DNA of 64,000 bases from an uncultured Actinomycetes bacterium (lineage in GTDB: Bacteria; Actinomycetota; Coriobacteriia; Anaerosomatales; CAWKMJ01): positions 931,578 to 995,577 of the forward strand of contig CAWKMJ010000001.1 of the NCBI GenBank assembly GCA_963850695.1, read 5' to 3'. Below are positions 18,944 through 49,226 of the stretch, piece by piece; the stretch's first letter is position 1, and each line of letters starts with the position of its first letter. The notes beneath the pieces are model-generated. The model saw nothing but the letters and a program-made list of their open reading frames with translations. It ran no database searches and was not told the DNA's origin. The position numbers were made by a program, and so were the translations under genes.

Positions 18944-20818
18944 CTACTTGAGTGCGTCGACCTCGGCCTCGGTGAGATCGAGCACCCAGCCGCGCATGAG
19001 TCGGCCGGATCTCTCGACCCGGTCGTACTGCACATGCGCCGCCGTGTCACGAGCCGTGTGATACACGGGGTCATCGCGCCACTCGATCCAGGCAGCGGGG
19101 ATTCCCTTGTACTCGAAGCTGTCGTGATCGCTCCAGCCGGGGTCCTTGAGGTAGGCCAGCGGCTCCTTGGTGTACTTGCCCCAGCTCTTCAGCGAGGCCA
19201 CCACCGTCATCTTCGAGTAGCCGGTGTTGCGCACGTTGAAGGTGCCGCCATAGCCCACCATGTCGATCGAGACCATGCCCTCGGTACGGGCCTTGTCTGC
19301 CGAGGAGAGGGTTGCGACGTAGTGCCTGGAGCCGAAGTGGTGGTCATCGGGCGTGGGCCCGCTGATCTCCTCGGAGCCGAACACCACGAACCTGATGGTA
19401 GGCGCGGCGTCTGAGACAGCGAGCACGCGAGCGAGCTCCAGCATGACCGCGACGCCTGAGCCGTTGTCGTTGCCGCCCGGGGAGGGCGACTTCGAATCGA
19501 TGTGGGCTCCGAGCACGATCGTGTCGGGCGTGGTGCCGACCTTCTCGGCCACGACGTTGACCGATGTCTTGCCGCCCGGTATCCAGAAGGACTGCTTGCT
19601 CACCGTGTAGCCGTAGCTCGTCAGCTGCGCGGCGCAGTAGTCAGCCGCCTTTCGCTCCGCAGAGCTGCCCGCACTCCTCACGCCGTATCCGGTGATGGCG
19701 TACACGTGCGCCTTGGCGCGCCCCTTGGAGAAGTACGGCGCCCGCAACGCGTGCTGACACTCGAGTCGCACGTGCCACGGCACCGTCACGGGCCCGCCGA
19801 AGAACGTGAAGTGCTGCATACTCGCCCGCCGCGACCACAGACGCCCCGCCACCGAATCGGGCACCCTCGCAGGCGCAACCAGGAGCAGCGGCGATCCTTG
19901 CTGGCCGAGGTAGACACCGCCCGCCAGCGCATCGGCGTAGGCCTCGCCCGAGGCGAACCCGGGCTTGTCGCGATCGAATCCTGCGGCGGTGGCCGCGAAG
20001 TCGCTCACGTTGATGGCTACCTGGTAGCGGTCCGCACCGGAAAGGCGGCTCACGTTGGCCGAGCCGAACGCGCTCTGGAGCGCCTTGCTCGTTGAGTACG
20101 GTACCGACGCCGGGCCTCCAGCGATGATGACCTTCTTCACGCCCGCCTTCTTCATGGCGCCGATCGTGGCTGCGGGGTTGCGCGTCGGCTCCATCAGGTA
20201 GATGGGCCAACCCTTGGCCGCAGCGATCGGCGCGCTGGCCAGCGCATCGGTGAAGACGCGCCCTGTGGCCACAAAGGCAGTGTCGACCGAGCCGCCGAGC
20301 ACGTCAGCGGTTTCCGCCGCGACCCGGTTGGCCACAGCGTAGCGGTCGTTTCCGGCGATCCTCACGATCTCGACACCGGGGCCGAGCGTGGCAGCAACCT
20401 GAGTCTGGACCTTGGGCGAAAGCGATGCCGTGCCGCCGAGCAGATACACGCGGCTAGGGTCGAGACGCTGGAGCTCCGTTCGTACCGACCCGGGCACGAG
20501 GTCTTTCTGTGAGAGCAGTATCGGCCCATCACCCGCACCGGCAAGCGCCGATCCGCCGAGCGCATCTGCCCACGCCGTGCCGTTGACGAGCACGACCGTG
20601 TCCGCCGTGCCCGGATACGCCTTCTTCGAGATCTCGATGGCGGTCGTGTAGCGGTCGGGACCGCTGATGGAGGTCGACGCCACGCCGTGGGCCTGCATCG
20701 GCAGGCACAGAGCTGCCATCGCGAGGACGACAAGCACGAGCAGGGCTGCCGGCAGGTGGCCGCGGTCGAGCGCGGCGGCGTGGGACCGAAGCGTGTTGCG
20801 AGAGTGATCCATACGCAT
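18944..20818 (-). CDS. cell-wall-anchored M28-family metallopeptidase (3 CWB2 repeats + aminopeptidase domain)
   Basis: 624 aa, intact, with a signal peptide. Three repeats of the CWB2 type (G(P/N/A)DRY.TA..I.....AD.VVL..G..(W/F)ADAL....LA.....PILL). The C-terminal M28 region has GAHIDS..GGNDNGSGVAVMLELAR..FVVFGSEE..H..D. Confidence 0.85.
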   Translation of the reverse strand: MRMDHSRNTLRSHAAALDRGHLPAALLVLVVLAMAALCLPMQAHGVASTSISGPDRYTTAIEISKKAYPGTADTVVLVNGTAWADALGGSALAGAGDGPILLSQKDLVPGSVRTELQRLDPSRVYLLGGTASLSPKVQTQVAATLGPGVEIVRIAGNDRYAVANRVAAETADVLGGSVDTAFVATGRVFTDALASAPIAAAKGWPIYLMEPTRNPAATIGAMKKAGVKKVIIAGGPASVPYSTSKALQSAFGSANVSRLSGADRYQVAINVSDFAATAAGFDRDKPGFASGEAYADALAGGVYLGQQGSPLLLVAPARVPDSVAGRLWSRRASMQHFTFFGGPVTVPWHVRLECQHALRAPYFSKGRAKAHVYAITGYGVRSAGSSAERKAADYCAAQLTSYGYTVSKQSFWIPGGKTSVNVVAEKVGTTPDTIVLGAHIDSKSPSPGGNDNGSGVAVMLELARVLAVSDAAPTIRFVVFGSEEISGPTPDDHHFGSRHYVATLSSADKARTEGMVSIDMVGYGGTFNVRNTGYSKMTVVASLKSWGKYTKEPLAYLKDPGWSDHDSFEYKGIPAAWIEWRDDPVYHTARDTAAHVQYDRVERSGRLMRGWVLDLTEAEVDALK

Positions 20819-30434: not shown

Positions 30435-31487
30435 AGGTCACGACCCCCGTCCCTTGCTCGATCTCGCCGATCTCGTAGACGGTCTCGCCCGCAGCGCGCA
30501 GGGTGGCCGCCGCATGAGGAGCATCTGATGCCGAGAGGACGAGCGCGAAACCGACACCCATGTTGAAGGTCTTGAGCATCTCGTCAGCGTCGAGCGAGGC
30601 AGCATCGGCGAGCGCGCCGAAGATGGCCGGCTCCCGCCACGAAGCGGGATAGCACGCGCGCATCGCAGTCATCGGGCAGCACGCGGTCGAGGTTCTCGGT
30701 GATGCCGCCGCCCGTGATGTGGGCCATCGCCTTGGGACGGTGCTCGGTCTGGAGCAGCGCCTGGACCGCCCTCACGTAGATGCGCGTGGGCTCGAGGAGA
30801 GCATCGGCGAGCGTGGCGCCGCCGAGATCCACCCGGGCAAGCGCGAGCTCGTCCTCGTGACCCTCGACGAGCACGCGGCGAACGAGCGAGTAGCCGTTGG
30901 AGTGGATGCCTGAGGAGGCAAGGCCCAAGACGACATCGCCCGGGGACACCGTGGAGCCGTCGATGATCCTCGGCTTGTCGACCACGCCGACGCAGAAGCC
31001 GGAGAGGTCGTAGTCATCATCGGGCATGACGCCGGGATGCTCGGCCATCTCGCCGCCGATCAGCGAGCAGCCGGCCTGCGTGCAGCCCTCGGCGATGCCG
31101 GAGACGATGCTTGCGACCTTCTCGGAATCGAGCTTGCCGATGGCGATGTAGTCGAGGAAGAACAGCGGCTCGGCGCCGGTGACGAGGATGTCGTTGGCGC
31201 ACATGGCCACCAGATCGATGCCCGACGGTGTCGTGTCGGTCGAGGAGCTGGGCGAGCTTGAGCTTGGTGCCCACGCCATCGGTTCCGCTCACCAGGATCG
31301 GCTCGGCCATCTCCTTGAACGCCGCTGCCGAGAAGAGTCCGCCGAAGCCACCGATGTCGCCGATGACCTCGGGGCGATAGGTCGACTGGACCTTGGCACG
31401 GATGGCATCGACGGCACGCGCGCCCTCCGACGTGTCCACGCCGGCGTCGGAGTAGGTGGTGGGTCGATCGTTGTTCTCGTCAGTCAT
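30427..31487 (-). pseudogene. purM: phosphoribosylformylglycinamidine cyclo-ligase (AIR synthetase); two frame breaks
   Basis: [30 protein letters not shown] (31017..31487), ..[48 protein letters not shown] (30584..31279), ..FNMGVGFALV.. (30427..30672). Confidence 0.9.
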
Positions 31488-31508: not shown

Positions 31509-32999
31509 CTACCCGCAGCTCTCCAGGCGCAGCTTGCCCGTACGGACCGGCTCGGGAATCTCGATCGGGTAGTTGCCGTCGAAGCACGCCATGCAGTACT
31601 CCTCGGCGGTGCGTCCGGTCGAAGCGACCATGTCATCGATGCTCATGTAGGCAAGCGAGTCGGCGCCGATGAAGTCGCGGACGTACTCGATATCGTGCAT
31701 CGCAGCGATGAGCTGCTCCTGCGTATCGGTGTCGATGCCGTAGAAGCACGGCCAGCGCACGGGAGGTGAGGTGATGCGCATGTGCACCTCGGTCGCGCCG
31801 CCCTCGCGCAGCAGCTCGACGAGCTTGCGCGAGGTGTTGCCGCGCACGATCGAGTCGTCGACGACGACGAGCCGCTTGCCCTCGATCGCATGGCGCATAG
31901 GGTTGAGCTTGAGCCGGATGCCCTGTTGGCGGATGTACTGCGTGGGCGAGATGAACGTGCGGCCGATGTAGCGGTTCTTCACGAGCCCCTCGCCGTACGG
32001 GATGCCTGACTCCTGCGCGTAGCCGACTGCCGCCGGGATGCCGGAGTCCGGCACGCCCATCACGAGATCGGCCTCGACGGGAGCGGAGCGCGCCACCGCG
32101 GCCCCCATGAGCCTGCGTGCCTCATAGAGCGTGCAGTCGTTGAGGACGGTGTCGGGGCGCGCGAAGTAGATGAACTCGAAGATGCACAGGGATGGCTTCT
32201 CGGCAGGTACCGCCTGCTCGGAGCGCAGACCCTTCTCGCTCAGCTTGATCATCTCGCCGGGGGCGACGTCACGGACGAACTCGGCACCGAGGATGTCGAG
32301 CCCGCATGTCTCGCTTGCCACGACCCATCCGATCTCGTCGAGCTTGCCGAGCACGAGGGGACGGACGCCGTAGGGATCGCGGAACGCATAGATGGCGTTC
32401 TCTGTCGTGAGAACCACCGAGTAGGCGCCACGGATGAGCTCCATCGTGTCGCGGATCCCGCTCATGATCGAGTTGTGCTCCTGGGTGAAGTGATCGACGA
32501 GTGTCGCGATGACCTCGGAGTCGGTCGTGGAGCGGAAGCGCACGCCGTTGTCATGGAGCTCGTCACGGAGTTCCGAGACGTTGACGAGGTTGCCGTTGTG
32601 GGCCAGCGCGATGGGCTGCTTGCCGATCGAGGAGAGCATCGGCTGGGCGTTCTCCCAGCTCGTCGATGACCCGGTGGTGGAGTAGCGGGTGTGGCCGATG
32701 GCCACGTCCCCGGTGAGCGTGTCGAGGTCGGACTCTTTGAAGACACGAGAGACAAGGCCGAGGTTCTTGGTGACGGTCACGGTCTCGCCATCGCCAACCG
32801 CGATACCGGCAGACTCCTGGCCGCGATGCTGCAGCGCATGGAGGCCGAAGTAGGTCAGGCGAGCGACATCCTCGCCCGGAGCGTAGACGCCCACGACACC
32901 GCATGCTTCCTCAGGGTGCTCAGGCTTGTCAGCGAGGACCCAGTCCTCGTCTTCGTGGGTGTGGGACGGACGGTCGTGTCCGCAAGATCCCGTGGTCAT
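31509..32999 (-). CDS. purF: amidophosphoribosyltransferase
   Basis: 496 aa, intact. N-terminal nucleophile context ..EEACGVVGVYAP, LQHRGQESAGIA, PRPP-binding VVVDDSIVRGNTS. Confidence 0.9.
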   Translation of the reverse strand: MTTGSCGHDRPSHTHEDEDWVLADKPEHPEEACGVVGVYAPGEDVARLTYFGLHALQHRGQESAGIAVGDGETVTVTKNLGLVSRVFKESDLDTLTGDVAIGHTRYSTTGSSTSWENAQPMLSSIGKQPIALAHNGNLVNVSELRDELHDNGVRFRSTTDSEVIATLVDHFTQEHNSIMSGIRDTMELIRGAYSVVLTTENAIYAFRDPYGVRPLVLGKLDEIGWVVASETCGLDILGAEFVRDVAPGEMIKLSEKGLRSEQAVPAEKPSLCIFEFIYFARPDTVLNDCTLYEARRLMGAAVARSAPVEADLVMGVPDSGIPAAVGYAQESGIPYGEGLVKNRYIGRTFISPTQYIRQQGIRLKLNPMRHAIEGKRLVVVDDSIVRGNTSRKLVELLREGGATEVHMRITSPPVRWPCFYGIDTDTQEQLIAAMHDIEYVRDFIGADSLAYMSIDDMVASTGRTAEEYCMACFDGNYPIEIPEPVRTGKLRLESCG

Positions 33000-33117
33000 G
33001 TGCGTGGTGTGCTCCTCGGCGCGATCGAGGCGCTGCTGACCGGCCTAGGATACCACGCTGTGAAGGCCTACTCGGTGGCGCTGACCGCGTAGCCGAGCGG
33101 AGCTCATGCCCGCGCGC

Positions 33118-33833
33118 CTACTCGGTAGCGCTGACGGCGTAAGTGTCGCCGATGGAGCCGGTCGACTCCCCCTCGGCGTCCACGAACTCTGACACGAAGA
33201 CATCACCTGCGAAGTCGTAGGTGGGCGACAACTGACCGCCGAGGCGGACCACGCCGGTATGTGGGTACGGGTCCCAGCGCTGATCGAGGGGCTCACCGGG
33301 TCGCGAGAGTGTCTCATCGACGGCTCCCTGCGCATCGATCCATCCACTGGCGTTCACGGTGCCGCTGAAGCTCCCGCGCTCCCACAGGTAGTCGGTGTCC
33401 GGATAGCCGGGCGGCATGTTCGTGTAGGAGCCGCCCACAGTGCCGTCCACCGTGCCGTCCGCGTGAACGTTGATCGTGATGTCGAACGCGGGCTGCTCGT
33501 ACTCGTTGATGAGCTTGCCGGCAAGCGTGGCATCGCGGACGACGAACCGGCCGGCTCCTCATCGCCGGACAAGCCGCTCATCCCGTCGTACATACCGCCA
33601 CCCGACGAGTCGGTGTCCGCAGCCTGAGTTGCGGGTGTGGAGGACTGCTGGGCCTGCTGCATCTGCGAGGCGAGCTGGCTGGCTCTCTCGCCGTGCGAGA
33701 GCGCGGTGATCGCGTCGTAGCTGAAGAGCGTGCCAGCGGCGACCGTCACGACGATCGCGCCGGACGCAAGGCCCGCTGCTACCTTGGCGCCCAGCGCAGT
33801 CGTCCCTGCCGCTCCTGAGCCGCCAGCCATCAC
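33118..33833 (-). pseudogene. membrane-anchored extracytoplasmic protein, hypothetical; one frame break near 33540
   Basis: The GTG start at 33833 overlaps the upstream stop (GTGA). TM helix AAGLASGAIVVTVAAGTLF (ORF 33354..33833) joins ORF 33118..33450 through ..FVVRDATLAGKLINEYEQPAFDITINVHADGTVDG... Confidence 0.55.
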
Positions 33834-35188
33834 TCACCACCCTCTGGATCGCCCTCGGTCGCCCAGGAGCACGGCGGGAGCGTGACCTCGCCCTTCGCAG
33901 CCAGGTCGTAGCCCAGCGTGACCGTCATGACAGTCGGTGCCTTCTCGCTCGAGGTCAGGTTGCCCTCGGCGTCGAAACGTTCGAACGTTGCGGTGCCCTC
34001 GAGTGAGAATGTGATGGGATCGCCCTTCGTGGGCACGCCATCAACGTCTTGGGCCGGGAACACCGCTGTCACGACCTGCGCCTCGCCCTCGGTCTTGTAC
34101 GCCACCGCGATCGTGCCATCGAGCGTGAGCATCCCAAGGTTCTCATCGCTGGCATCGACCTTGAGCTCCCCGTACCTTCCAGGTACTCGCGATCGCCCTT
34201 GAGCGTGATGTAGGTCATCTCGATCTCACCCGGCAGCACCATGCCATCTTCGGCCGGCGCCGTCTCTGTCTCGGGCTGAGCCTCCGGCTTGTCTGGAGTC
34301 TCGGCAGCGATCTCGGCCACGATGCGGTCGACCTCGGCCCGCCAGTTGCCCTTGAAGAAGTCCTTGTTGTTGCGGAGTTCCTCCTTGAGCGCCGTCTTGA
34401 GACGGTCGCGCAGCTCGCCGTCGGGATCCTCGAGTCCCTTGGCCCCGAGGAGTCTGCTCGCGTCGTTCTCGATGATCGTGTCGATCACGACGCCGGGATC
34501 CATCCCACCCTCAAGGAACTTGATGATGATGTTGGGATCGATCAGTCGCTTGACCTCTTCGGCCAGCTCATGAATGACGATCTTCTTCGCTCCGCCGAGA
34601 AGCCGCATGAGGACTGACTTGCCGAGGAGCTTGGCCACATCGTCGTTGTTGACACTGGCGGCGCGGCTCCTCGAGCGCGGTGGCCATGCGCCGATGTGTG
34701 TCCTGCAGCAGACGCACCTCGACGAGCTCTGTGACGTCGCCCGCCTGCGGGTTCTTCTTGATCTCGCCGGCGAGCTGCTCGTACTCCTTGGCCATCTGGG
34801 CGTGGTAGTGCGCGTCATCGAGGTAGGCCTGTTTGAGTTTGTCGCGGCTCTCATCCAAGAACTTGATGTCCTCGACGACCTTCTGTACCTCTCTAGCGCG
34901 CGCGAAGATGCGGCCGAGCTCGCGGTTGGTCAGCATGCGTCCGGCAAGCCATCCGGCCGCAACGGGGCCCAGCACCGGTCCCATCCACTTCGTGGCCCAT
35001 GTCGCGACACGCCCCGGTGCCTGGATGATGAACCCAGCGGCTCTACCCAGGGAGCGCCCTATGTTGCGCAGGAAGTCGAAGGGTCCGGCGAACGCCGGCG
35101 CGGGTACTGCAACGAGGAATACGGCGACGAGCAGCACGAGCGAGATGATGCGGCGCATCCTGAGCATCCGGCGAAGCATGCTAGTCAC
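33830..35188 (-). pseudogene. secreted protein, hypothetical; two frame breaks
   Basis: Signal peptide RIISLVLLVAVFLVAVPAPAFA (ORF 34568..35188), helical middle (34069..34854) and beta-rich C-terminus (33830..34132). Confidence 0.55.
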
Positions 35189-36438
35189 CCGCTCCCGGCT
35201 GCCAGACGAACGCGCCCGTGCGGTCGATGTAGGCTGTCGATCCGTCCTCCAGGATCACCGATCCGAGCTCGCCCTCGAACACGCCGATGTCGGCAAACTG
35301 GGGTTCGATGACCCACGCGCCACTCGTGTCGATGAAGCCGCCCCCGTCTTGCGTGAGCACGCCCGCCAGCCCTTCTGAGAACTCACGAGCGCCGTCATAC
35401 TTCTCCTCGATCACGGTGTTGCCGCTCGTATCGATGTAGCCGCCAAGGTAGTCGGTGGATACCACAGCGAGGCCCTCGGAGAACCCCATCGCGCTCATGT
35501 ACTGTGCTGGGATGACCATCTCGCCGCTGGTGTCGACGTAGCCGAAGAACTCAGACCCTTTCGGCACCACCGCCGCATGGCCCTCAGAGAACGGCATCGC
35601 GAAGTCGAACGTCGGCTCGATCACCCACGCGCCGCTCTTGTCGATGTAGCCGAAGAGCTCGCCGTCCGTACTCACCGGCGCAAGCCCGTCTCCGAACGAA
35701 TCGGCCGACTGGAACGTCGGCTCGATGACCCACGCGCCCGAAGGGTCTATGAAGCCATACGTGTCGCCCTGCAGCACGACTGCGAGTCCCTCGGAGAAGT
35801 CCGCGCCCACCTCGTACTGCGGCTCGATGACCGCCGCACCCGTCTCATCGATGTAGCCGAACTGCGTGAGGTCCTTGCTCAGGACGAGCGCCCGTCCGTC
35901 GTGGAACATCTGTGCGCCGACGTAGTCTGTCTCGAAGACGAGCTGGCCGCTCTCATCGATGTAGCCCGTGTGATCGCCAAGGAAGACGGGGTAGAGGTAC
36001 GGGCCCTCTTCGGCAGGGGTCTCGGTCGCCACAGGATCGGTGTCGGTGTCGGAGGTGGCCGCAGGCTCACTCGCCGTCGCGCTCGGCTCCTCAGAGGGAC
36101 CCTGCGACCAGCGATAGACCCCTCGCGCGCCGATGATGGCGATGCCAACGAGGAACCCCGCGAGCATCGAGAATGCGATGAGGCGACCCCAGCGGATGCC
36201 GCCCTGCGGCTCCCGTGGTGTCGCCGCCGGTTGTGGCACCGCTGCCTGGGGCGGGGCCACCTGCGCCGGCTGCGAAGGCGGTGCTAGGGGCGGAGGTGCC
36301 GGTCTGCTCGGCTTCGTCGGGCTGGACTGGCTGCTCCGGCCCAGTGACAGTGGAACGAGCACCGCGGAGATCGCTGCCGCACGCCTGACAGAACGCATCA
36401 CTCTCGCCAGTCTGGTTTCCGCAGTTGGGACAGAACAC
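35181..36438 (-). pseudogene. zinc-ribbon / TM / WG-repeat (KWG-type beta-propeller-like) protein; one frame break in the Pro/Ala linker
   Basis: GTG at 36438. MFCPNCGNQTGESDAFCQACG (ORF 36091..36438), TM helix LIAFSMLAGFLVGIAIIGA, then at least 7 repeats of G(Y/F)ID.SG..VIEP.(F/Y)..A..FSEGLA.V (ORF 35181..36401). Confidence 0.7.
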
Positions 36439-36440
36439 GC

Positions 36441-37091
36441 CTACTCACCTATCCCTATGGTCTGGACGTAGACGAGGTTACCGCCCTCGATAGCGAAGAC
36501 GGCACGGTCGTTCACGTAGGTTTGGACATCGAATTCGCCGAGGAGTTCGGGCGTCTCGTCGATCTCATCGGCCTCGCCACCGAGCACCGCCATGACCTCC
36601 TCGTATCCCATCTCGAAGTCGAACTGAGTGGGGTCGAGATCGGGATAGACGACGTCATCACCCGGGTTCTCCATCGGGTCGACCGAGACGGCCTTGCCCT
36701 CGACGAAGGTGACCTTCTGCTCGTGCTCGGGGTAGTACCAGATCTCGGTGCGGACGAGTTCTTCGCCATCGCGCGGGAGGTAGGCCACGATGAACTGGTC
36801 CGGTGGCCCGAAGACGTCGGCCACCTCGTCCTCGACCGCTTGGGCTTCGGCTGGGGCGTCTGCGGCGGCAACCGGCTCGGGATCCTCGGCCGGAAGCAGC
36901 GCGAAGACGAGCATCGTGCCGAGACAGCCGAGCAGCACGAACGCCGCGACGACGATGGCGACTATCAGGCCGGTCCGGCGGCGCGGTTGCGCGGCAGCGC
37001 TCTCGAGCTGCGCGCCGCACTCGGTGCAGAATCCCCCCGAGTCGAACGAGGCGCCGCACTGCGGACACGTGTACCCAGTGTCGGCAGACAT
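36441..37091 (-). CDS. zinc-ribbon / single-TM protein with extracytoplasmic domain, hypothetical
   Basis: ATG at 37091 (MSADTGYTCPQCGASFDSGGFCTECGAQL), TM helix GLIVAIVVAAFVLLGCLGTMLVFALL, acidic C-terminal domain. No frame break seen. Confidence 0.65.
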   Translation of the reverse strand: MSADTGYTCPQCGASFDSGGFCTECGAQLESAAAQPRRRTGLIVAIVVAAFVLLGCLGTMLVFALLPAEDPEPVAAADAPAEAQAVEDEVADVFGPPDQFIVAYLPRDGEELVRTEIWYYPEHEQKVTFVEGKAVSVDPMENPGDDVVYPDLDPTQFDFEMGYEEVMAVLGGEADEIDETPELLGEFDVQTYVNDRAVFAIEGGNLVYVQTIGIGE

Positions 37092-37173
37092 GCGATTCCC
37101 TCCCCACAACAGTGTACCCGACGCCCGGGTGCCAGCGCGGCTCTCACCTCGCGTATCATGCTCAGTGGGGGGT

Positions 37174-38265
37174 GTGCGCGTGCGAAGGATACTCAGACTC
37201 ATCAACGAGGTCTCGCTCGGCTGGATGCTCGTCGGCCTCACCTTGGTCATCCTCGGCTTCGCCGGGATCTACTGGGCGTTCGGCGTCTTCGGCGTGGGAA
37301 TGCTCGAGTTCACGAGCGGTACCCAGCGCGACGTCAACTTCTGGGACGCGCTGTACTTCTCACTCGTGACGGTCTCATCGCTGGGCTACGGCGACATCCG
37401 CCCCGTGGGCTGGACGCGTCTGCTCGTGGGTGCCGAGGTGATCATCGGTCTGTCATTCTTCGGCCTGCTCGTGGCCAAGATCTCATCGGTGAAGCAGGAC
37501 TACATCCTGCGGCGCATGTACTACTCCGAAGTGATCGACGGGCGCCTGAAGGAGTTCGCCGACGAGCTCGACGAGAAGCTCAAGCTCTACCGCATCACGT
37601 CGAACATGCTGCTCTCCGGCGACATCGATCCCGAGCTCACCTACACGTTCAAGGCCGACGTCAAAGAGACGACGTTCTTCTTCCAGGTGCACAGCCTGCT
37701 GCGCGAGATCAACGAGCTCGTCGAGTTCGAGATCCACAACGGGGACTTCTTCGGTGACGTGTCCGACACGACCATGAGCCGGATCCTCGCCTCGATACAG
37801 GGTCTGCTCGACCACACGCTGCGCATCACCGAGCGAGACCTCGAGAGCGCATGCGAGCACGTTCTGTGCGGCAACGAGAAGCTGCTTGAGGAGATCAACG
37901 ACCTGGCCGAGGAGCTCGCCATGCTCGGCCAGCGCCACTCCAAGAACGAGGAGATCGTCGAGCAGTGCGAGCGGATCGAGGAGCTCGTGGGGCAGGTGCG
38001 TGGGGTAGCGACCGCACGCAGCTTGAGGCGGCCGGACCGGCCGGGATGTAGAGCGCGCGGAGCTGCAGGCTCCCGGGCGAGACTCCTAGGGTTCCAGCGC
38101 GTCGTCGATATCCCCCATCGTGCCCGCCTCGATGCTCGCCGGACCGCCCAGTGTCCAGCACTGATCGATATCGTAGGTGTGGTCGTGGAGGAAGCGTCGG
38201 CTCACCGAAGGCAGGTAGTCGGTGCCGGTGAGAACGAGGCACCCTTGCCGCAGACCGAGTGCTGA
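37174..38265 (+). CDS. 2-TM potassium channel with large helical cytoplasmic domain (3' end uncertain)
   Basis: GTG at 37174. M1 helix LGWMLVGLTLVILGFAGIYWAF, pore helix plus filter ALYFSLVTVSSLGYGD, M2 helix LLVGAEVIIGLSFFGLLVAKI. The in-frame stop at 38265 would overlap the convergent gene by about 180 nt. An alternate-frame TAG near 38006 suggests an indel near the end. Confidence 0.7.
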   Translation: MRVRRILRLINEVSLGWMLVGLTLVILGFAGIYWAFGVFGVGMLEFTSGTQRDVNFWDALYFSLVTVSSLGYGDIRPVGWTRLLVGAEVIIGLSFFGLLVAKISSVKQDYILRRMYYSEVIDGRLKEFADELDEKLKLYRITSNMLLSGDIDPELTYTFKADVKETTFFFQVHSLLREINELVEFEIHNGDFFGDVSDTTMSRILASIQGLLDHTLRITERDLESACEHVLCGNEKLLEEINDLAEELAMLGQRHSKNEEIVEQCERIEELVGQVRGVATARSLRRPDRPGCRARGAAGSRARLLGFQRVVDIPHRARLDARRTAQCPALIDIVGVVVEEASAHRRQVVGAGENEAPLPQTEC

Positions 38266-39545
38266 GCCACCTGTCAATGCATCCGGCAGTCTGGCGACCA
38301 CCCCGGTGTTCGCCGCATCCAACATCGGCGGCATGCCGGCGAGCGCCTCGTCCATGATCGCCGCGGCCGTCTCGTAGCGATCGTCTCCCCACACCCGATT
38401 GCTGACTCGGTCTCCCTCCCCAAGCTGCGCCAGCACAGCGTCCGAGACGGTAGCGGGACCGCCACCGACCACCCGGAATCTGAAGTCAGGATCGGCGAGC
38501 ACCGCTTGAGTCTCGGCAGGAATGTGGTCCCGCCCCACCAGCAGGATCGGCCAGCCGGTCGCCACGCACATGGGCGAGAGTGCCAGTGCATCGAAGAACT
38601 TGTCGGGGTCCTCACCGTTGGCGATGAGCGCAGCCTTGTACCCCACCCACGGCCTCATGAAGGTCTCGTTGGGCCGCTCGGTCTGCATGCGTCGCGCGAT
38701 CGTGGCAGCGAGCTCGTAGCGGTTGGCGTTGGGCTCGAGCCGATCAAAGGTCACCCCCGACACAGTCGAGATGTCGGCAAGCACTCCAGGCCCCACCGAG
38801 ACGGGCCCGCCCACGATGTGCACGTAGAACGGCCCGTTCTCCTGCCTTATCGCGCGCAGTGCCTCGATCACTTGGGACGGCGCGGAGTCGCTCTGGACGA
38901 GGAAGATCGGCGCGCCATACGCGTACGATAGCCCCGCTGCCGAGAGGGGATCTGCTGCAGCTCGGTCCTCCCCGCTCGCGATGACCACGTGATTCACGTT
39001 GCGCCAGCCAGGGAAGTTCTCCTCGGCGATTGTGACCGCCGTGGTGTACCGGTCACTGCCCCACAGGCGTTCGATGTCGGTCGATGCCCGCGGTGCAGGC
39101 CACTCGGCGACGCCATACAGGTAGTAGCCTCCCGCACCGCTCGTCACTGCTCGCCGGACGCGCACGTAGTACCAGCCCGTGGTGGGTGCGACGTACTCAA
39201 TCGTCTCGTGGCTGGTACCAGGCGTCACCGACAGGTCCACCGGCGGAGCGGAGAAGTCCTCTGCGTGGGGCGGGTAGAGGAGGAGTTCGTAGTCGGTACC
39301 GACTGCGCCGCCGAGGTCGAACCTGGCGTCCTGGCCGGCCAGAAGGTACATCCGATGGACGCTGTCCGGCTGCGACGCCGTGAGCTCATCGACCGTGCCG
39401 GAGCACAGGGGCCGGCCGGGTATCGTGCTCGGATCGAGGTAGAGCCGACCGCCGACAATGGCAGGGCGGCGGAGGTGAGCAGCGCAGCGCACAGCATGGC
39501 GGCAAACAGCCCGCCTGAGACGCCGCGCGTACCTGCGGCTCTCAT
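38086..39545 (-). pseudogene. surface protein: PPC-like (pre-peptidase C-terminal) domain + 3 CWB2 repeats; one frame break near 39450
   Basis: ATG at 39545 follows GGGGGCGAGGGAG. Signal peptide GGLFAAMLCAALLTSAAL (alternate frame) joins ORF 38086..39651. PPC-like segment DSVHRMYLLAGQDARFDL..DYELLLY..GWYYVRV. CWB2 repeats GSDRYTTAV.., NANRYELAA.., GDDRYETAA... Confidence 0.75.
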
Positions 39546-39709
39546 CTCCCTCGCCCCCTTGGCATGCCGAGACGGACTCGGCCGTACCAGGTTCATACCC
39601 ACGTTCGACACGACTGCAAGCCGACCCGATGCGCACGGATCCGCAGGGCACTCTCCTCGCGACTTCCTCGACGATGTCCCCGACATGACGATGAGCCGGG
39701 CCCGCCGAG

Positions 39710-42283
39710 CTAGTTCACGATCGCCCGGATCTCGTCGACCACGTTCTCGGTCACCGACTTGGGTCCGCCGAAGACCTGGACCTGCACGACGGTGCCCTTC
39801 GCCTTGGTGAGCACCGAGCGTGTGGCATTCGGCAGCGTGTCGGTCTGTGTGAGCGTCATGACGCCACCGTGGATGCCGACGGCGGGTCCGCCACAGAGCG
39901 AATCTGCGAACTTCTCGTCCGCCCCGTTGGAGACCCCCACGTACCCGTACGTGCTGATGCCGCTCGTGACCCCGTACTCGGCCACTCGTGCAGCGGTCAC
40001 GTAGCGGTCGGCTCCCCACACACGCATGATCGGGGTGCCCGCCATGGCGGACATGGCGCTCAGGGTCGCATCGGTCACGGTCACCGGACCTCCGGCGAGC
40101 ACGGCCTCCTCGATGATGTCGGCTCTGAGTGCTGACTGCGTCGGTCCCGGTACGACGTCTCTGCGTGTGAGGATCAGCGGTGCCTTGGCCTGATAGACCA
40201 CCGGGCTCAGTGACAGCGCGTCTGCCCCGATCTCGCCGCTTGCGAGGAAGGCACGCCCATCGTCGTGACCGAAGGCACGGACTCGCTCGGCGATCGCTGC
40301 CGAGACGACGTAGCGGTCGCTTCCCGCCGATGCGCTCGACGGTGAGCCCCAGGTCGTCTCGCAGATGCGTCTCGATCGAGGGGGCCACCGAGTAGGGACC
40401 TCCCACGATGATGACCTTGCTCGCCTTCGAGCCGCACGATCTCAGCCTCCACGTTGGCCGGCAGGCGGTCTTGGAGCGTGACGAGGATCGGTGCCTCGAG
40501 ACATCCGGCGAGCCCTGAGGCCGACAGCGCATCGGCATAGGTCCAGCCGGTGGCGAGGATGACCTCGTCTGATGAGTCGAAGTTGGCTCTCGAGGCATCG
40601 ACTGCCACCGCGTAGCGGTCGCGCCCTCCTCGGCGGACGATCTCTGTGTAGATGACGAACGGCACGCTGTGGGCCACTTCGATGTTGCCTGCGTGGTCGA
40701 CCGACCAGTACTGCAGCGTGTAGCTCCCGCCGCCGCTCACAGTGATCGGAGCGGTGTAGGTGGCAACGGCGCCACCATTGAGGCGGTAGTAGGTGGCAGC
40801 GACGCCTGAACCGCCGGTATCGGTGGCGACGAGCGAGATCAGGGCCTCGCCGATGTAGGGCGAGGCGACGTCATCGGTCGTCGTCGGGGGTGTGGTATCG
40901 CCGAGGTAGTCGTGGACGAAGACGTCGCGGAACCCGTTGGTGTCTCCCGCGACCAGCGTGGTGGCGAGCGAGCCGAACGCGACATGACGACCGTCGTCGG
41001 AGATCGAGGGTGAGCCGCTGTTGTTGTTGCCCTGGGTGCCGTCGGTCGCCAGGCTCACGCGCACGGTGGTACTCGTCTCGCGGTCTCGAACGAAGATATC
41101 CGCAGCGCCGTTGGTGTCCCCTGCCACCAGCGTGGTGGCCTTCGATCTGAACGCCACATAGCGACCTGCGTAGGAGAGTGAAGGTGCACCACTCAAGTTG
41201 AATGCCTGAGCACCACCGCTGGTGAGGTTCACGCGCTCGGTCGTGCCTGTGCTGAGATCGCGGACGAAGACATCGCGGAAGCCGTTGGTGTCATCGGCGA
41301 ACGAGGGTCGTGGCCACAGACCGGAAGGCCACGTAGCGCCCGTCGGCAGAGATCGCCGGGTACTCGCTCGCGCCGAACGCCTGCCCACCGCCGCTGGCCA
41401 CACTCGCGCGCACGGTGGAGCTGGCCTCGCGGTCGCGCACGAAGATGTCCCACACGCCATTGGTGTCGCCCGCCACGAGATCGGTGGCTGCGGAATGGTA
41501 GGTCACGCGTTGGCCATCTGCGGAGATGGCGACAGCCGAGCTCCAGCCGTTCGCTTGCGAACCATCGCTTGCCACGCTCACGCGCTCGGTCGCGCCGGTC
41601 TGGCGATCGTGGACGAAGACGTCGCGCACCCCGTTCGTGTCGCCTGCCACGAGCGTGGTGGCCTCGGACACGAACGCCACATAGCGGCCGTCATCGGATA
41701 TCGCCGGATACAGACTGTCACCTGCTGCAGTCTGCGTGCCGCTGGTCGTCACGCTCACGCGCACGGTGGTGCTGGTCTCGCGGTCGCGGACGAAGATGTC
41801 GGCAGCGCCGTTCGTGTCACCCGCCACGAGCGTGGTGGCGTAGGAGTGGAACGCCACGTAGCGACCGTCGCCGGAGATGGACGGATCGGTGCTCGCACCG
41901 CCAGCCTGCCCGCCATCGCTGGCCACGCTCACGCGCTCGGTCATGCCAGTCTGGCGGTCGTGGACGAAGCAGTCCTCAACACCGTTCGTGTCACCGGGCA
42001 CGAGATCGACCGAGGCCGAGAAGAAGGTCACATACATGCCATCGGCCGAGATGATCGGGGCATCGCTGTCTCCGCCTGTGGCCTGCGAGCCATTGCTGGC
42101 CACACTGACGCGCGCGGTGTCCCCGGCGGCGGCATGGGAGTACATCGGGATGACCAGAGCGGCGACGGCCACACACGCAAAGACCAGCCACGCCAGCCGG
42201 AATCGCCCGGATGGGGCCAGCCGTCCAGACACGACGTTCCGCAGCGCGTGATCGCTCATCCGAGCCGAGCGCATGTCGAACAT
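39710..42283 (-). pseudogene. surface protein: signal peptide + 7-bladed PD40/TolB-like beta-propeller + Ig-like module + 3 CWB2 repeats; several frame breaks
   Basis: Fragments 41291..42283, 40207..41460, 39225..40598 and 39710..40201. Seven units of RVSV.S.G.Q.......P.IS.DGRYVAF.S.ATTLVAGDTNG..D(I/V)FV(R/H)D. Ig-like module TTPPTTTDDVASPY..YTLQYWSVDHAGNIE. CWB2 repeats GRDRYAVAV.., GSDRYVVSA.., GADRYVTAA... Confidence 0.8.
40905..42115 (-). repeat. tandem coding repeats, about 132 nt (44 aa) x 7 (PD40 blades)
   Basis: Blades share long identical stretches. For example, ATTLVAGDTNGAADIFVRDRETSTTVRVS occurs twice verbatim. Confidence 0.75.
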
Positions 42284-42377
42284 CTCCTCGGGGTCACCTG
42301 ACAGCTGTCACCATTGTAGCGGCATAGGGTGCCATCCCGCCGTGCTGGCCCGGCATCGAGCTCCGTGACAGCGGCCC

Positions 42378-43755
42378 CTACGCCTGCTGCGTCGCCGGCT
42401 GCGGCGCCTTGCCTGCCGCGCTGCCCTTCATGATCTCGGCAACGATCGCGCCATCATTCATCGCCACGCCGAACAGCACGAGCAGCAGGCCCACCGAGTA
42501 CAGGTCCGACGAGCCGAGCAGCAGGAACGCGATGGCCACGATGTAGGTGATCGCCACGATCCATGGAGCCCACGGCGCGCGCTTGAGGGTCACCTTGTCG
42601 CCCACCGGCGTCACTTCCGACGTCCTTCCGGTGACGAAGCCGAGCGCCCCGCCAAGAACAGCGAACACGACGGCCCACAGTATGTTGATGGGCACGCCGC
42701 CCACCAGCAGCATCACGACGAAGACGCCGATAGCCCAGACTCCCCTGAACGCCTGCTTGGCGGGGCTATAGAAGCGTCGGCGCGTCTGCTGGCGAGCCGC
42801 CAGGAGCTCGAGGATCGCCATGACCAGCAGTGCTCCGATGAGGATTGCCTGGATCGTGCCTTCACTCATCGCCGCCACCCCCTTCTCCAGCCGAAGACCC
42901 GCCGCTACTCGGCCCGCCTCCCGCATCGCCTGCCGAGGTGCTGACATCGCCCAACGCGTCGCGAGCGTCAGCGAACGAGGAACCGGCGCTGGCAGGTCAC
43001 CCGCAGCGACGGTGTCCTGCCCCGCTCTCAGCATCTCGCCGAGACGTGTCTTGCTGATGGGCTTGCCGCCGACTATCAGCTCGAGGAGAAGCTGGGCGGC
43101 GATCAGCGCCCCGACTGTGCCGACGACCGTCGCCTTGGTGTTGGTGCCCACCGGCGGGAGCTCTCCGTCCGTACCTGCGCTCAGCGCAACAACGGCATCC
43201 GGCGCCTTGATCGTCTCTTCGTCACCGGCGGTCTCTGCGGGCTCCTGCTCGCCCGCGTCGTTGATCAGTGCCGTCGAGACCTGCGTGTCGGTCGCTCCTG
43301 AGACTCGGGCACCGCCAAAGGTGGCCGAACCGGTCTTGCTCGAAGAACGTCCCGGTGCCCGAGCCGCCGATCTCGTACCCGTCACCCTTCTTGGTGATGG
43401 TGGCCGCGCCCGACCCGCTTCCCAAAACGGGAATCCAGACCGAGCCACTCACCAGGTACTCGGTGTCGCTCACCTGCTCGACAGGGAAGCTCCAGCTGAG
43501 CGCCTTGCCGATCTTGGGTACGACACCCCTCACGGTGGCCTGGGTGCCTCGATCCCAAATGACGATCACGGCGGCGAACTTCTTCCCCGTGCCGGTCGAG
43601 CCACCGATCTCGTACGTTCCGGTGAAGTTGTTGGTGTCCGGCTCAGGCGCCTGATCGGCCTCCTCGGCCAGCGCAAGAGGCGCTATCGCGAGCAGCATCA
43701 GGACCGCCAGAAGACACGTCAGTAGAGTCCGCGCGAGGCGCGTTGACCGATTCAC
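42378..43755 (-). pseudogene. polytopic membrane protein with N-terminal exported domain, hypothetical; one frame break near 43330
   Basis: Signal peptide LLTCLLAVLMLLAIAPLALA (ORF 43222..43755) joins ORF 42378..43448, which has at least 4 TM helices. Confidence 0.55.
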
Positions 43756-43885
43756 GAGCTCCCCCCTCGTCTCGGTTTGGCTAGGTCATGTATACCCTTA
43801 GGCTGGCCGAGAAGGCCAGTCCGCGGGGAAGGATCGGGCGGGCGGCGGGTGGACCGACGCGAGCAGCCGACGATCGCTCGGGAGG

Positions 43886-44455
43886 TCAGCCGCCCTCCAT
43901 GGCGGGCGCGTCGGGCTTGTCGCCTCGGCCGCGCCTGAACCTGCGCACCAGCACGATGACGATGACGATGGCGGCCACACCGGCGAGCACCGGAACGACG
44001 ATAGCGAGAACGGAGAGCACGAGCGCCACTACGTCCTCGAGCGTGCTGAGCACCGGCGCCGCGACACCACCGGTCGCCGTGTTCGCGACCGGGCGCGCCG
44101 TGGCCTTCACGGCATGCACTCCTCCGGCGAGGAGCACGCCCGCGATGATGTAGATGATCGGACTCACGTAGCCATCCCCGACGTTGGCGGCGGCGAAGAG
44201 CAGACCGCCGGCCGCGGGCCTGAGGACCGTCTGGATAGCGTCGTTGACCGTGTCGACGGCCGGTACTTTGTCGGCCACCATCTCGATGATGAGGAGCACG
44301 GCGATCAGCGCGATCGCCCACCACTCGCCAAGGAGTGAGAAGGGCTCGGTGAGCTCGATCCAGCCCAGACGCTCAGCGATCGCGACCGTCAGGAGCGGGA
44401 TGTAGGCGTTGAGCCCAGCGGGGACCGCCAGGCCGATTCCGGCGAGGATATCCAT
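43886..44455 (-). CDS. DUF4126-family membrane protein
   Basis: ATG at 44455 (MDILAGIGLAVPAGLNAYIPLLTVAIAERLGWIELTEPF..EMVADKVPAVD..), inside the read-through ORF 43886..45139. Confidence 0.65.
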   Translation of the reverse strand: MDILAGIGLAVPAGLNAYIPLLTVAIAERLGWIELTEPFSLLGEWWAIALIAVLLIIEMVADKVPAVDTVNDAIQTVLRPAAGGLLFAAANVGDGYVSPIIYIIAGVLLAGGVHAVKATARPVANTATGGVAAPVLSTLEDVVALVLSVLAIVVPVLAGVAAIVIVIVLVRRFRRGRGDKPDAPAMEGG

Positions 44456-44462
44456 GCATCTC

Positions 44463-44468
44463 ATTATA
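44463..44468 (-). promoter_or_regulatory. candidate -10 box (TATAAT) 7 nt upstream of the DUF4126 ATG, possible leaderless transcript
   Basis: Minus strand: cacgaTATAATgagatgcATGgat. The spacing fits leaderless mRNAs common in high-GC Gram-positives. No -35 was evaluated. Confidence 0.3.
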
Positions 44469-44511
44469 TCGTGACGCTCTGAGCTGGGGTTTCGTCGCCG
44501 GCGCTCGGCGG

Positions 44512-46517
44512 TCAGGCTACCGGCGCATCCATGTCGAACTGCCAGCCGAAGTAGCTCTCGCTCCTGCACGCTGCCGGGGACGACACGCAGCCGCCCTGGG
44601 CCCGCCACATAGACCAGCGAGACGCCAGCGTATCTGTTCGCGTCACTGGCTACGGGGCGCAGGCGCATCCTCATCGTGGGGGGAGCGACGATCAAGGTGC
44701 CCTCGGCCAGCTTCATTGCGTCGATCCAGGAGGTACGGGCGGGCCGTTCGACGACTTCGAGCTTGGGCTTGTCCATGCTCACGCCAAGGGCCTCGAGCTG
44801 CTCCGTCGATGCCCCGATCACGCGGAGCATCACGCCAAGGTTCAGGGCTGTGGCACGCGCAACGTCGAGCGCCAGCACGGCGTCCTCGGCATCACCTTCG
44901 CCGTGCAGGAAGCCGCCGATGTCGAGCGCGAGCAGGACATCTGCGAACGTGTCGGTCCTGAAGACGCCGGCGGCGGCTGGGACGGCAAGACGGCGGCCGA
45001 GACGATCGGCCACGGTGCCAAACGCAAGATCGGTCGCCGCCAGTCGGTCATCCCACTGCATCATCACCATGGAGGCGGCCTGCTCTTGGACTGCCTTGAG
45101 GACGCCACTCGTGACCGAGACGACTGCCGAATCCTGCACTCAGCGTCTGCCCCCGCACACGCAGCCGCCTCTTCGGTCGCCTTGAGGAGCTCCTTGGCAG
45201 CTGACTGATCGAGCCGGCCGTCGGTGGTCGCGATGACCGCGGGATGCACGACCCCGTCGTCCATCAGCGCCACTGACTGGGCACCGTGATGAGGCCGCTG
45301 ACATCGCCCTGCGCTGCCACGGGAACCAGCACCGATTCGCCGAGAGTGGGCATACCGTGCTCGGGCAAGGGCACCTTCCGAGCGAAGGACTGCGTGACTA
45401 TGGCTCCCAGCAGCAGTGAGACAACCACGACGAGGACGGCTGCGTTGACGACATCGTCGCCGAAGAGACCGGCCTCGGAGCCCACGAGAACAGCCGCCAG
45501 CGTCGCGGCGGCCTGCGGCAAGGTCATGCCCAGCATGAGTCCGGACTCGGCCCAGGAGAAGTGCATCACTCGGCCACCTACGAGCTGCTGCCGCTGTCTT
45601 GCCGAGCACAGCACCAGCAGGAAGACCAGCGCCAGACTCAGCGTCGAGGCCTGGAACAGCAGGCCGGGGTCGATCTGCGTCCCGACATAGACAAGGAACG
45701 CTGGCACAAGCAGTGAGGCACCGAAGAACTCCACGCGCTCCATGAGAGCCCCGTGGTTGGGAACGACTCTGTTGAGACCCAGACCGGCAAGGAAGGCGCC
45801 GATAAGACCCTCGATCCCGAAGACCGTCGCAAGCGCTGCGGCCGAGGCCATCCCAAACAGGAGGAGGGCGAACCGCATCGAGCGCTCGCGGCCGATACCA
45901 GCAAAGAAGCGCTTGGCGACGATGGGCAGCAGCCAGAACGAGTAGAGCGGCCAGCGAGGGCAAGGCCGATGCCCAGAGTGAGCGTGACCGCCGCAAGGGA
46001 GCCACCATCTGCCGTGGCCACGGCGATCGCCAGAACGGTCAACGCAAGCGTGTCGGTGATGACGGTCGCCCCGCAGAGACCGTAACGACCCGGTGCCCGC
46101 CGAGACCGGCGACCTTCACATCGGGCAGCGTGACAAGCGTGTGCGAGGCCCAGATCGAGCCGATCAACATCGCCGAGACCAACGAGTAGTCGAGCCGCAG
46201 GCCTAGCGAAGGTGCCAAGAGCGAACGGGAATGCGAACGTCAGGAGCCCGAAGAGCACGGCCGCCCGTCTGATTCGCATCGAACTGAGCAAGATCGATCT
46301 CAAGCCCGGCCTGGAACATCAGGTACAACAACCCGATGGAGCCGAGCGTACCCATCGCGGCTTCGTCGAGAAGATTGAGCACGTAGGGCCCCGCGAGCAG
46401 ACCCACGAGAACGAGTCCAATCACTCCCGGCAGGCGGAACCGGGATACGAGCGTCGGACCCACCATGATGGCAAGCGCGACTACGGCAAGCGTCCACTCC
46501 ACTGCTCCGTGCTCCAT
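44512..46517 (-). pseudogene. CPA2-family cation:proton antiporter with C-terminal USP-like cytoplasmic domain; many frame breaks, 3' end uncertain
   Basis: ATG at 46517 follows GGAGG (MEHGAVEWTLAVVALAIMVGPTLVSRFRLPGVIGLVLVGLLAGP). Fragments 46203..46853, 45638..46303, 45264..45878, 45064..46008 and 43886..45139 (N-terminal half). End placed at an alternate-frame TGA at 44512-14. Confidence 0.6.
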
Positions 46518-46566
46518 GCGCAAGCCTCCGTGTCGATCTCCCGTTGCTGTCCCGCTCTGACTCGCG

Positions 46567-48851: not shown

Positions 48852-48864
48852 GTGATGGCGTCTC

Positions 48865-49226
48865 CTAGGAGTTCTCGGACGGGGCGACTGGCTGTCGCGA
48901 GCGAGCTCATCCTCGTCCGGCTTGGGATAGACGACCTTGAGCAGATAGGAGATCTGGAGGATCACCGCGACCGGCGTGAGCCGCAAGCACGATCCAGCGG
49001 TACTGGCTCGGCAGCACGTCCGCGGGATGATCGTCGCGACCATGGCCACGATGAAGCAGCATCTGCGGACCGGCCCAGAGCACCTTGGACGGTCGCTCGC
49101 GAGCGCTGTCGGCGCGAACGGAGCCGCCAGGCGTCGATCGAGACGAACGACCGCCATGAGCAGCGATGACGACACCGACGGATCGTTGATGAACCAGATG
49201 CCCGGCCCGGTGAGCTCGGCCTCCAC
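48865..49226 (-). pseudogene. small membrane protein, hypothetical, between purQ and purL (frame uncertain)
   Basis: ORF 48738..49226 (MEAELTGPGIWFINDPSVSSSLLMAVV..CCFIVAMVATIIP..LTPVAVILQISYLLKVVY). An alternate-frame TAG at 48865-67 lies inside taGGAG, upstream of the purL ATG. Weak. Confidence 0.3.

Follow-up and report, generated by a model that had tools for sequence, protein, structure and literature searches.

We analysed a stretch of 64,000 nucleotides (the window) from contig CAWKMJ010000001.1 of an uncultured Actinomycetes bacterium and found that three of its genes, all on the minus strand, encode proteins with three tandem CWB2 repeats (PF04122, CW_binding_2; such a triplet is called CWB2x3 below). 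The proteins are an M28 aminopeptidase, a protein with a PPC-like beta-sandwich and a protein with a PD40-type beta-propeller. Probably the three are Sec-exported and held at the wall by CWB2x3 in a monoderm, Coriobacteriia-related host, and the same anchor is reused across the lineage.

CWB2 triplets in three proteins of the window

Pfam scans matched PF04122 over three stretches of each protein, with E=8.4e-46 (154.9 bits) for the M28 protein and, after correction of frameshifts, E=6.2e-37 (126.4 bits) for the PPC-like and E=1.2e-37 (128.8 bits) for the PD40 protein. The gathering score of the family is 24.9 bits. An earlier note on this DNA, made from the letters alone, had ascribed triple CWB2 repeats to these proteins, which is confirmed by Pfam E-values of 1e-37 to 8e-46. 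It had also named scoring by hidden Markov model (HMM) as a check; all three proteins score far above the PF04122 cut-off. We further built a CWB2 HMM from the window's own repeats and searched the full 64 kb with it, translated in six frames. It returned three envelopes per protein and confined CWB2 to the three minus-strand genes. The nine repeats align along R.xG.DRY.TA ... (V/I)(L/I)A.G ... DAL ... P(I/L)(L/I)L ... GG..(S/T)V and fit the motif that the earlier reader had written for them.

The anchor is N-terminal in the M28 protein and C-terminal in the PD40 and PPC-like proteins. Signal peptides of all three were read by eye from the translations, with no predictor, and signal-peptide-like N-termini were seen in each. 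The features of the M28 gene are as follows:

18944..20818, minus strand: M28-CWB2 gene, intact, 624 amino acids, predicted to be secreted, N-terminal CWB2x3 (Pfam)
20684..20818, minus strand: putative signal peptide (MRMDHSRN...LLVLVVLAMAALCLPMQAHG) with charged N-region and hydrophobic core, then AHG ahead of CWB2 repeat 1 (by eye)
20405..20671, minus strand: CWB2 repeat 1, residues 50-138 (HMM envelope; best Pfam stretch 51-138)
20090..20362, minus strand: CWB2 repeat 2, residues 153-243 (HMM envelope)
19766..20047, minus strand: CWB2 repeat 3, residues 258-351 (HMM envelope)
18989..19558, minus strand: zinc aminopeptidase domain, residues 421-610 (Pfam)

The M28 protein matches exactly a protein of the 1.2-Mb source contig (P0246), in whose annotation the gene starts at 20812 (622 amino acids). 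An orthologue (P0248) is known; in nucleotides, the region of its gene (L047) shares 88% identity with the window. The catalytic domain matched Peptidase_M28 (PF04389) with E=5.5e-33 and 114.8 bits against a cut-off of 21.3, and PDB sequence matches include the aminopeptidases 2ek8, 6hc6 and 1cp7. The motifs GAHIDS, NDNGSG, GSEE, SIDMVG and SDHDSF align with the same residues of these enzymes; their H, D, EE, D and H we take to be the metal ligands and the catalytic Glu, as is usual in the family. In the PDB the anchor itself matched Cwp6 (5j72, E=1.9e-29), Cwp8 (5j6q, E=3.4e-21) and SlpA-HMW (7acy, E=1.4e-18).

For the second protein the following features were assigned:

38086..39545, minus strand: PPC-like gene, 486 amino acids after correction of a one-nucleotide deletion near 39445-39452, predicted to be secreted, C-terminal CWB2x3
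39444..39545, minus strand: putative signal peptide (MRAAGTRGVSGGLFAAMLCAALLTSAALPLSAVG), in the window in a frame different from the body (by eye)
39094..39417, minus strand: PPC-like beta-sandwich (pre-peptidase C-terminal / collagen-binding-domain-like), about 110 residues (fold and weak Pfam match)
38779..39069, minus strand: CWB2 repeat 1, residues 160-256 in the numbering after correction (HMM envelope)
38431..38730, minus strand: CWB2 repeat 2, residues 273-372 (HMM envelope)
38116..38397, minus strand: CWB2 repeat 3, residues 384-477 (HMM envelope)

An AlphaFold2 model of this protein, computed from an alignment of 52 homologues, reached a pLDDT of 95 and a pTM of 0.93. Foldseek placed it in the PDB first next to Cwp6 (5j72, E=1.4e-22), then to Cwp8 (5j6q, 1.1e-20) and then to nine SlpA-HMW chains; these top 11 matches (5j72, 5j6q, 7acy, 7acx, 7acz, 8bby, 9f8e/f) cover E=1e-16 to 1e-22. 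Against SlpA-HMW the target-normalised TM-score (TMt) rose to 0.70 over the whole SLPH chain. In the model the three repeats pack together as a single triangle of pseudo-threefold symmetry, the arrangement known from Cwp6, Cwp8 and SlpA-HMW. Since Pfam scores, PDB sequence matches to Cwp6, Cwp8 and SlpA-HMW and the predicted trimeric fold agree, we regard the repeats as true CWB2.

The name PPC-like is justified at the level of the predicted fold, where the beta-sandwich resembles 5sv5 (TMt 0.75), the collagen-binding domains of ColG (1nqj, 0.70, and 1nqd) and the Tk-SP domain 3afg (AlphaFold2 model, Foldseek). Membership of PF04151 is borderline: the match on the corrected protein (E=0.002, covering profile positions 42-69 only) scored 19.3 bits and thus stayed below the Pfam threshold of 25.9 bits, so that the earlier label PPC stands as a resemblance in fold and not as a Pfam assignment. 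Several homologues do pass PF04151. The homologues are 40-79% identical over full length with the same PF04151 and PF04122 architecture, and the closest bear database names such as 'cell wall-binding repeat-containing protein [Coriobacteriia bacterium]' or 'putative cell wall-binding protein'.

The third protein combines the anchor with two further domains:

39710..42283, minus strand: PD40 gene, 856 amino acids after correction, predicted to be secreted, with propeller, Ig-like domain and C-terminal CWB2x3
42128..42283, minus strand: putative N-terminal signal/anchor segment (…RFRLAWLVFACVAVAALVIPMYSHAAAG) (by eye from the translation)
40888..42121, minus strand: PD40-type beta-propeller, seven repeats of about 60 residues (Pfam PD40; repeats counted from the translation)
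40648..40875, minus strand: Ig-like linker domain (…ATYYRLNGG…YTLQYWSVDHAGNIE…) (BLASTP to cytochrome; no Pfam match)
40371..40635, minus strand: CWB2 repeat 1, residues 550-637, containing the frameshift at about 40425 (HMM envelope)
40061..40334, minus strand: CWB2 repeat 2, residues 650-740, containing the frameshift at about 40322 (HMM envelope)
39737..40024, minus strand: CWB2 repeat 3, residues 753-848 (HMM envelope)

Each propeller repeat ends in (G/D)DTNGxxD(V/I/C)FV(R/H)D, and the label PD40 propeller given in the earlier note is upheld by PF07676 matches (E=1.2e-15 and 57.4 bits on the corrected protein, 57.4-58.6 bits over the scans, cut-off 20.9). The propeller has at least 8000 homologues, mostly assigned to PF07676, PF26549 or PF26550 and annotated as Tol/TolB-like. 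Among the at least 8000 matches listed, which are dominated by propeller-only homologues, none was near-identical to the whole protein, and a look-up gave no exact match to the corrected 856 residues. The pairing of PD40 with CWB2 is rarer, yet it is found in four database proteins (P0117, P0190, P0196 and P0202).

CWB2 is the only recognisable wall anchor in the window: no credible LPXTG sorting signal was seen in it, and Pfam scans of its open reading frames (ORFs) gave no SLH, LysM or sortase.

Frame changes in the PPC-like and PD40 genes

Both C-terminally anchored genes are interrupted in the assembly. The PPC-like gene spans 1460 nt, which is no multiple of 3; the signal peptide opened by its ATG at 39545 and the rest of the protein lie in different frames, a single nucleotide having been lost near 39445-39452. 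The PD40 gene is broken into three ORFs (41291..42283, 40207..41460 and 39710..40201) by single-base insertions near 41299, 40425 and 40322. The earlier bounds of 38086..39545 and 39710..42283 therefore hold for the loci and not for open frames, the four frameshifts having been read through without mention.

A frame plot of third-position GC (GC3) was too noisy for gene calling and gave the first hint of widespread frame changes. We searched intact proteins from related metagenome-assembled genomes (MAGs) against the window with tblastn and identified the genes with Pfam. Compared with intact homologues from three related loci (L026, L031 and L037), at least nine frame changes were found in purH, purM, purL, purQ, a small ORF between purQ and purC, and purC: at least three in purL (46570-48865), two in purM (30433-31487) and one each in purQ, the small ORF and purC by tblastn, with purH split across two frames according to Pfam. 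Two frame shifts also lie near 8050-8240 in a plus-strand cytochrome gene. Single-base indels thus occur about once per kb in the pur and cytochrome genes (27469-31487, 46570-51577 and 6900-9271), as often as in the CWB2 genes. By eye, a gene at 42381-43785 looks split as well.

Two intact counterparts bear directly on the CWB2 genes. The source annotation of the PPC-like gene holds only a 421-residue fragment (P0121, on the contig of 1,204,662 bp). A protein of 486 residues on an independent Logan short-read contig (P0241, in the 90% cluster of P0121) is identical to the corrected PPC-like protein, signal peptide and junction included. For the PD40 gene we compared window 39710-40640 with an ENA metagenome contig (L046:12383-13315). 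The CWB2 module gave a 1003-nt alignment of about 94% DNA identity, higher within the module, and its sole two gaps are the window insertions at 40425 and 40322; the L046 gene is uninterrupted.

It is very improbable that the PPC-like and PD40 genes (38086..42283) are decaying pseudogenes and the 'surface proteome' is in part non-functional. Such decay would explain four frameshifts within 4.2 kb and a source annotation with only fragments, P0121 (421 residues), P0244 (163) and P0277 (316). Against it, purL, purM, purH, purQ, purC and the cytochrome gene carry frameshifts at equal density, the short-read contig and L046 offer the intact versions just described, and indel correction leaves no in-frame stop in either protein. 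Pseudogenisation was rejected on the ground that conserved pur genes bear the same defects. Programmed frameshifting was likewise rejected, as the conserved pur genes share the defects and the sites are no repeat tracts. Because the pur genes are equally hit, the intact P0241 is identical and the L046 module is uninterrupted, the four frameshifts are most likely consensus or assembly errors and the genes functional, judging from these sequence comparisons. Users of the assembly should therefore expect gene calls that are cut short or divided by indels, at a rate of about one per kb; two CWB2 genes appear only as fragments in the source annotation.

Recurrence of the anchor, its probable ligand and the cell surface

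We scanned for relatives with the M28-CWB2 protein as query and one genome per species. This gave 45 loci with M28-CWB2 relatives, mostly MAGs labelled Coriobacteriia, Coriobacteriaceae, Eggerthellales or Actinomycetota (examples are EMTCatB1, HGW-Actinobacteria-1 and UBA2272). The best relative is 56% identical, and therefore the species of the window is not among the representatives. Cultivated Anaerosomatales (OPB41) have a Gram-positive wall, pili-like appendages and 17-18 multihaem cytochromes (PMC9686372). Judged by the taxonomy of the relatives and by these cultivated strains, the host, a high-GC, Coriobacteriia-related actinobacterium, is probably monoderm. None of the names of the related MAGs appears in that description of cultivated strains, and we keep the placement at Coriobacteriia-related.

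Across the window and 47 related loci there are 47 complete CWB2x3 modules. Most are C-terminal, in proteins of 450-2,170 amino acids, and several loci have two or three such genes. The source contig encodes no fewer than two more CWB2x3 proteins, P0198 (627 amino acids) and P0209 (494 amino acids, with CarboxypepD_reg). An identical P0209 also came from the run ERR11523668, in which the same organism may be present. Three repeats are present in 120 of the 128 CWB2-positive database homologues and in nearly all locus ORFs. All 38 proteins scanned with Pfam carry CWB2, and their partner domains are diverse: Big_9/cadherin-like (8), CarboxypepD_reg (6), He_PIG (6) and multicopper oxidase (6), further fn3, subtilase, RibLong, PKD, BNR, FG-GAP, LVIVD and beta-helix domains. 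These sequence data support the view that CWB2x3 is a recurrent shared anchor of the lineage, defining a Cwp-like modular wall-protein family. The earlier proposal that CWB2 is a general anchoring module is borne out to the extent of this recurrence (47 modules, diverse partners); the S-layer drawn from it is not.

The domain call is correct in a little-studied lineage; among the papers searched, none takes up CWB2 in Coriobacteriia or Anaerosomatales. The proteins already have names in annotation pipelines. The earlier note rightly says that CWB2 is best known from Clostridioides difficile, but a review has put the domain on record for Actinobacteria as well (PMC5817068).

Within the lineage the three repeats are distinct from one another. 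Repeats at the same position share a mean identity of 52% between proteins, compared with 34-36% between positions, and the nearest neighbour has the same position for 140 of 141 repeats. Experiments in C. difficile showed that anchoring needs each of the three repeats, that none can stand in for another and that they bind PSII, an anionic polymer (PMC4973711); the position-specific repeats of window and lineage are consistent with this. The C. difficile repeats interlock as a triangular prism with positive patches on the base that faces the cell (PMC8881574). The arginines of R.xG.DRY.TA are invariant in all three repeats of 38 proteins and are conserved in Cwp6. In C. difficile a P[ILV][ILV][LV] motif is needed, of which the proline is dispensable and the hydrophobic triplet is not (PMC4973711). 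The window's PIFL and PIYL deviate from this strict form; relaxed to P[ILV][ILVFYM][LVIM], the motif occurs in repeat 1 of 46 of the 47 modules and in repeat 2 of as many.

The following course of events is the most likely. All three proteins would be exported by Sec, after which the CWB2 repeats of each would fold as one pseudo-threefold triangular unit. This triplet would bind non-covalently to a secondary cell-wall glycopolymer, probably an anionic one, rather than to peptidoglycan. The module would then display the working domains at the wall, namely the M28 peptidase (predicted to be competent), the PD40 propeller with its Ig-like spacer and the PPC-like sandwich.

Several points weigh against this picture of wall-held proteins. 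That the proteins leave the cell and reside at the wall is inferred, and so is the kind of ligand, the polymer being proposed by analogy. Repeat 3 has no motif proline in 46 of the 47 modules, including those of the PPC-like (CLVL) and PD40 (VMTL) proteins; the sole module with a proline there is that of the window's M28 protein. Pfam scans of the window ORFs gave no SlpA-like LMW/HMW gene, secA2, LCP ligase or PSII-like/glycopolymer locus. The insertion at 41299 was corrected by inference, without a direct intact counterpart. And the notion of a general anchor draws on the window, the two further proteins of the same contig and the relatives.

Some of these points would also fit a different ligand, such as peptidoglycan, a neutral glycan or a protein, in place of an anionic secondary polymer, and hence a mechanism unlike that of C. 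difficile. The loss of the repeat 3 proline across the lineage, an identity of only 18-22% to the C. difficile modules and the lack of a PSII-like locus among the window ORFs speak for this, and to our knowledge the wall polymers of Coriobacteriia are poorly characterised. On the other side stand the invariant arginines kept in Cwp6, the strict maintenance of the three-repeat unit and the fact that the only experimentally defined ligand of the family is an anionic polymer (PMC4973711). We consider another kind of ligand unlikely and retain binding to an anionic polymer as the probable mechanism.

Equally slight is the chance of a C. difficile-like S-layer around the cell, in which an abundant CWB2 protein forms the tiles and minor ones are inserted. 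The module is homologous in sequence and alike in predicted structure to the SlpA-HMW tile, and relatives have proteins of 1,400-2,170 amino acids that end in CWB2x3 as well as several CWB2 genes per contig, as such a layer would have it. Similarity to SlpA in the PDB is limited to the CWB2 region. The giant relatives are adhesin-like (cadherin, Big_9, He_PIG), and the window ORFs scanned include no SlpA-like gene, secA2 or polymer locus. B. subtilis is not known to make an S-layer. CWB2 anchors proteins outside S-layers too and was first identified in the amidase CwlB/LytC of Bacillus subtilis (PMC5817068). For cultivated Anaerosomatales a Gram-positive wall and pili-like appendages are described, and the term S-layer does not occur in the text (PMC9686372). 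An S-layer, as the earlier note had suggested, is thus not supported by CWB2, and its proposed check for secondary-wall-polymer (PSII-like) genes gave none among the window ORFs.

The earlier note had also expected consequences for the way in which cytochromes reach the cell surface. Two large cytochrome genes are present:

3881-6711, minus strand: multihaem c-type cytochrome gene, about 11 CXXCH
about 6900-9271, plus strand: multihaem c-type cytochrome gene, 9 CXXCH counted and at least two more in a shifted frame

The two genes are divergently oriented and match Cytochrome_C7, Paired_CXXCH_1 and, weakly, MtrC/MtrF domain II/IV in Pfam. In the listed frame pieces at 3881-9271 we counted 22 CXXCH motifs, with two more by eye, and multihaem cytochromes at this place fit the 17-18 of cultivated Anaerosomatales (PMC9686372). 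The window cytochromes have no CWB2, LPXTG or other recognised wall anchor, and CXXCH occurs in none of the sampled CWB2 proteins, so that an effect of CWB2 on cytochrome delivery is a conjecture. A direct link was rejected, as no fusion was present in 248 retrieved proteins and all CWB2 ORFs of the 47 loci.

The only connection found between cytochromes and CWB2 is a shared Ig-like domain (…ATYYxLDGG…(F/Y)WSxDxxGNxE…), which occurs twice at the C-terminus of the plus-strand cytochrome (8530-9000, plus strand) and once before the PD40 anchor (40648-40875, minus strand). The copies are 39-43% identical (BLASTP of the PD40 protein against window 8501-9268, E about 1e-12), and in the DNA of relatives the matches to the cytochrome copies sit just upstream of the CWB2 modules. 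Since the cytochrome shares this spacer, the wall layer and an electron conduit could be physically organised together.

Near-identity between the PD40 anchor and its L046 counterpart begins exactly at the first CWB2 repeat, that is at the module boundary. The L046 gene encodes an LVIVD-propeller protein of 1104 amino acids (P0245) and has another gene neighbourhood; the next-best modules among 5.8 billion proteins share 71%, 53% and 47% protein identity with the PD40 anchor. Few as the sequences are, this suggests that the anchor cassette was recently exchanged or converted between genes with different propellers.

Taken to its full extent, the picture would make CWB2x3 the principal wall anchor of an uncultured subsurface Coriobacteriia-related lineage with large multihaem cytochromes: it would bind an anionic polymer, possibly build the first CWB2-based S-layer outside Firmicutes, travel as a mobile cassette and belong to a wall layer organised together with the electron conduit. 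We hold this combination to be rather doubtful. If it were true that the triplet is the principal anchor of the lineage, a conserved anionic wall polymer would be implied as ligand.

Genomic surroundings and known systems

The PPC-like and PD40 genes belong to an island that interrupts the purine-biosynthesis genes, with purF (31512-33044) on one side and purL on the other. Its other genes encode a WG-repeat protein, a zinc-ribbon protein, a K+ channel, a DUF4126 protein and a fragment of a Na+/H+ exchanger. The first of these was assigned as follows:

35184-36440, minus strand: protein with seven beta repeats of the WG-containing (KWG) type (PF14903, E=1e-66), anchored in the membrane by a transmembrane segment, not by CWB2

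One of the related loci (L026) has the same pur backbone with different and much larger CWB2 genes at other junctions, and in two others (L031 and L037) CWB2 genes stand beside pur genes too. This part of the window (31512-48865) may be a hotspot of surface-protein gene turnover. Together with the near-identity of the PD40 and P0245 anchors, the varied pur junctions suggest turnover of wall proteins and exchange of modules; both readings draw on few sequences. A promoter and terminator scan of 37800-42600 found nothing.

Around the M28-CWB2 gene, tRNA-Val and tRNA-Glu(ctc) lie downstream and tRNA-Glu(ttc) and tRNA-Lys upstream (18477-18792 and 20872-21879); an Rfam scan of the window returned four tRNAs and nothing else. 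Immediately upstream of the gene is a PIN/RHH toxin-antitoxin-like pair, and the order RHH-PIN-M28 is also seen in the relative L047 (88% DNA identity). Elsewhere, window 13374-16120 and 22115-25414 hold genes for a trehalose-6-phosphate synthase (GT20), a trehalose phosphatase and an MscS-type channel, a likely osmoadaptation group, and separately a CDP-alcohol phosphatidyltransferase beside a nucleotidyl transferase. The latter two may serve to make a solute or lipid from a CDP-activated polyol phosphate.

In annotations the three can confidently be called CWB2-anchored M28 aminopeptidase, PD40-propeller and PPC-like wall proteins. The result extends the well-studied anchoring principle of C. 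difficile to an uncultured lineage of actinobacteria, of which the cultivated relatives (Anaerosomatales) are Fe(III) reducers. A secondary wall polymer in such organisms is suggested and worth seeking; neither an S-layer nor cytochrome export follows from CWB2.

Among known systems, the Cwp proteins of C. difficile share a tandem triplet of non-identical CWB2 repeats, N- or C-terminal, in a protein that is secreted (here probably), the pseudo-threefold fold (here predicted), the use of one anchor for many domains (proteases, adhesin-like repeats) and the presence of several genes per genome, some of them adjacent. In contrast to C. difficile, the host is a high-GC Coriobacteriia-related actinobacterium and not a firmicute, the modules are about 18-22% identical to those of C. 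difficile and repeat 3 is without the proline of PILL. Moreover, no slpA, secA2 or PSII (anionic polymer, AP) locus adjoins the genes, which stand as islands in a purine-biosynthesis cluster.

In B. subtilis CwlB/LytC, which the M28-CWB2 protein resembles, CWB2 tethers a hydrolytic enzyme to a monoderm wall without an S-layer (PMC5817068); the enzyme there is an amidase, unlike the M28 aminopeptidase, propeller and PPC-like proteins here, and the likeness is one of description. Anchoring by SLH domains (Sap and EA1 of Bacillus anthracis; pyruvylated polymer) likewise employs a pseudo-trimer of three repeats and non-covalent binding to a secondary polymer (PMC5817068; PMC8881574), but shares no sequence homology with CWB2, and SLH was not found in the window ORFs scanned. 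The Actinomycetota proteins that pipelines name 'cell wall-binding repeat-containing protein' are found in Coriobacteriia MAGs and in Micrococcales such as Herbiconiux. They are direct homologues that show no difference in kind, and the proteins of the window are further members of this group.

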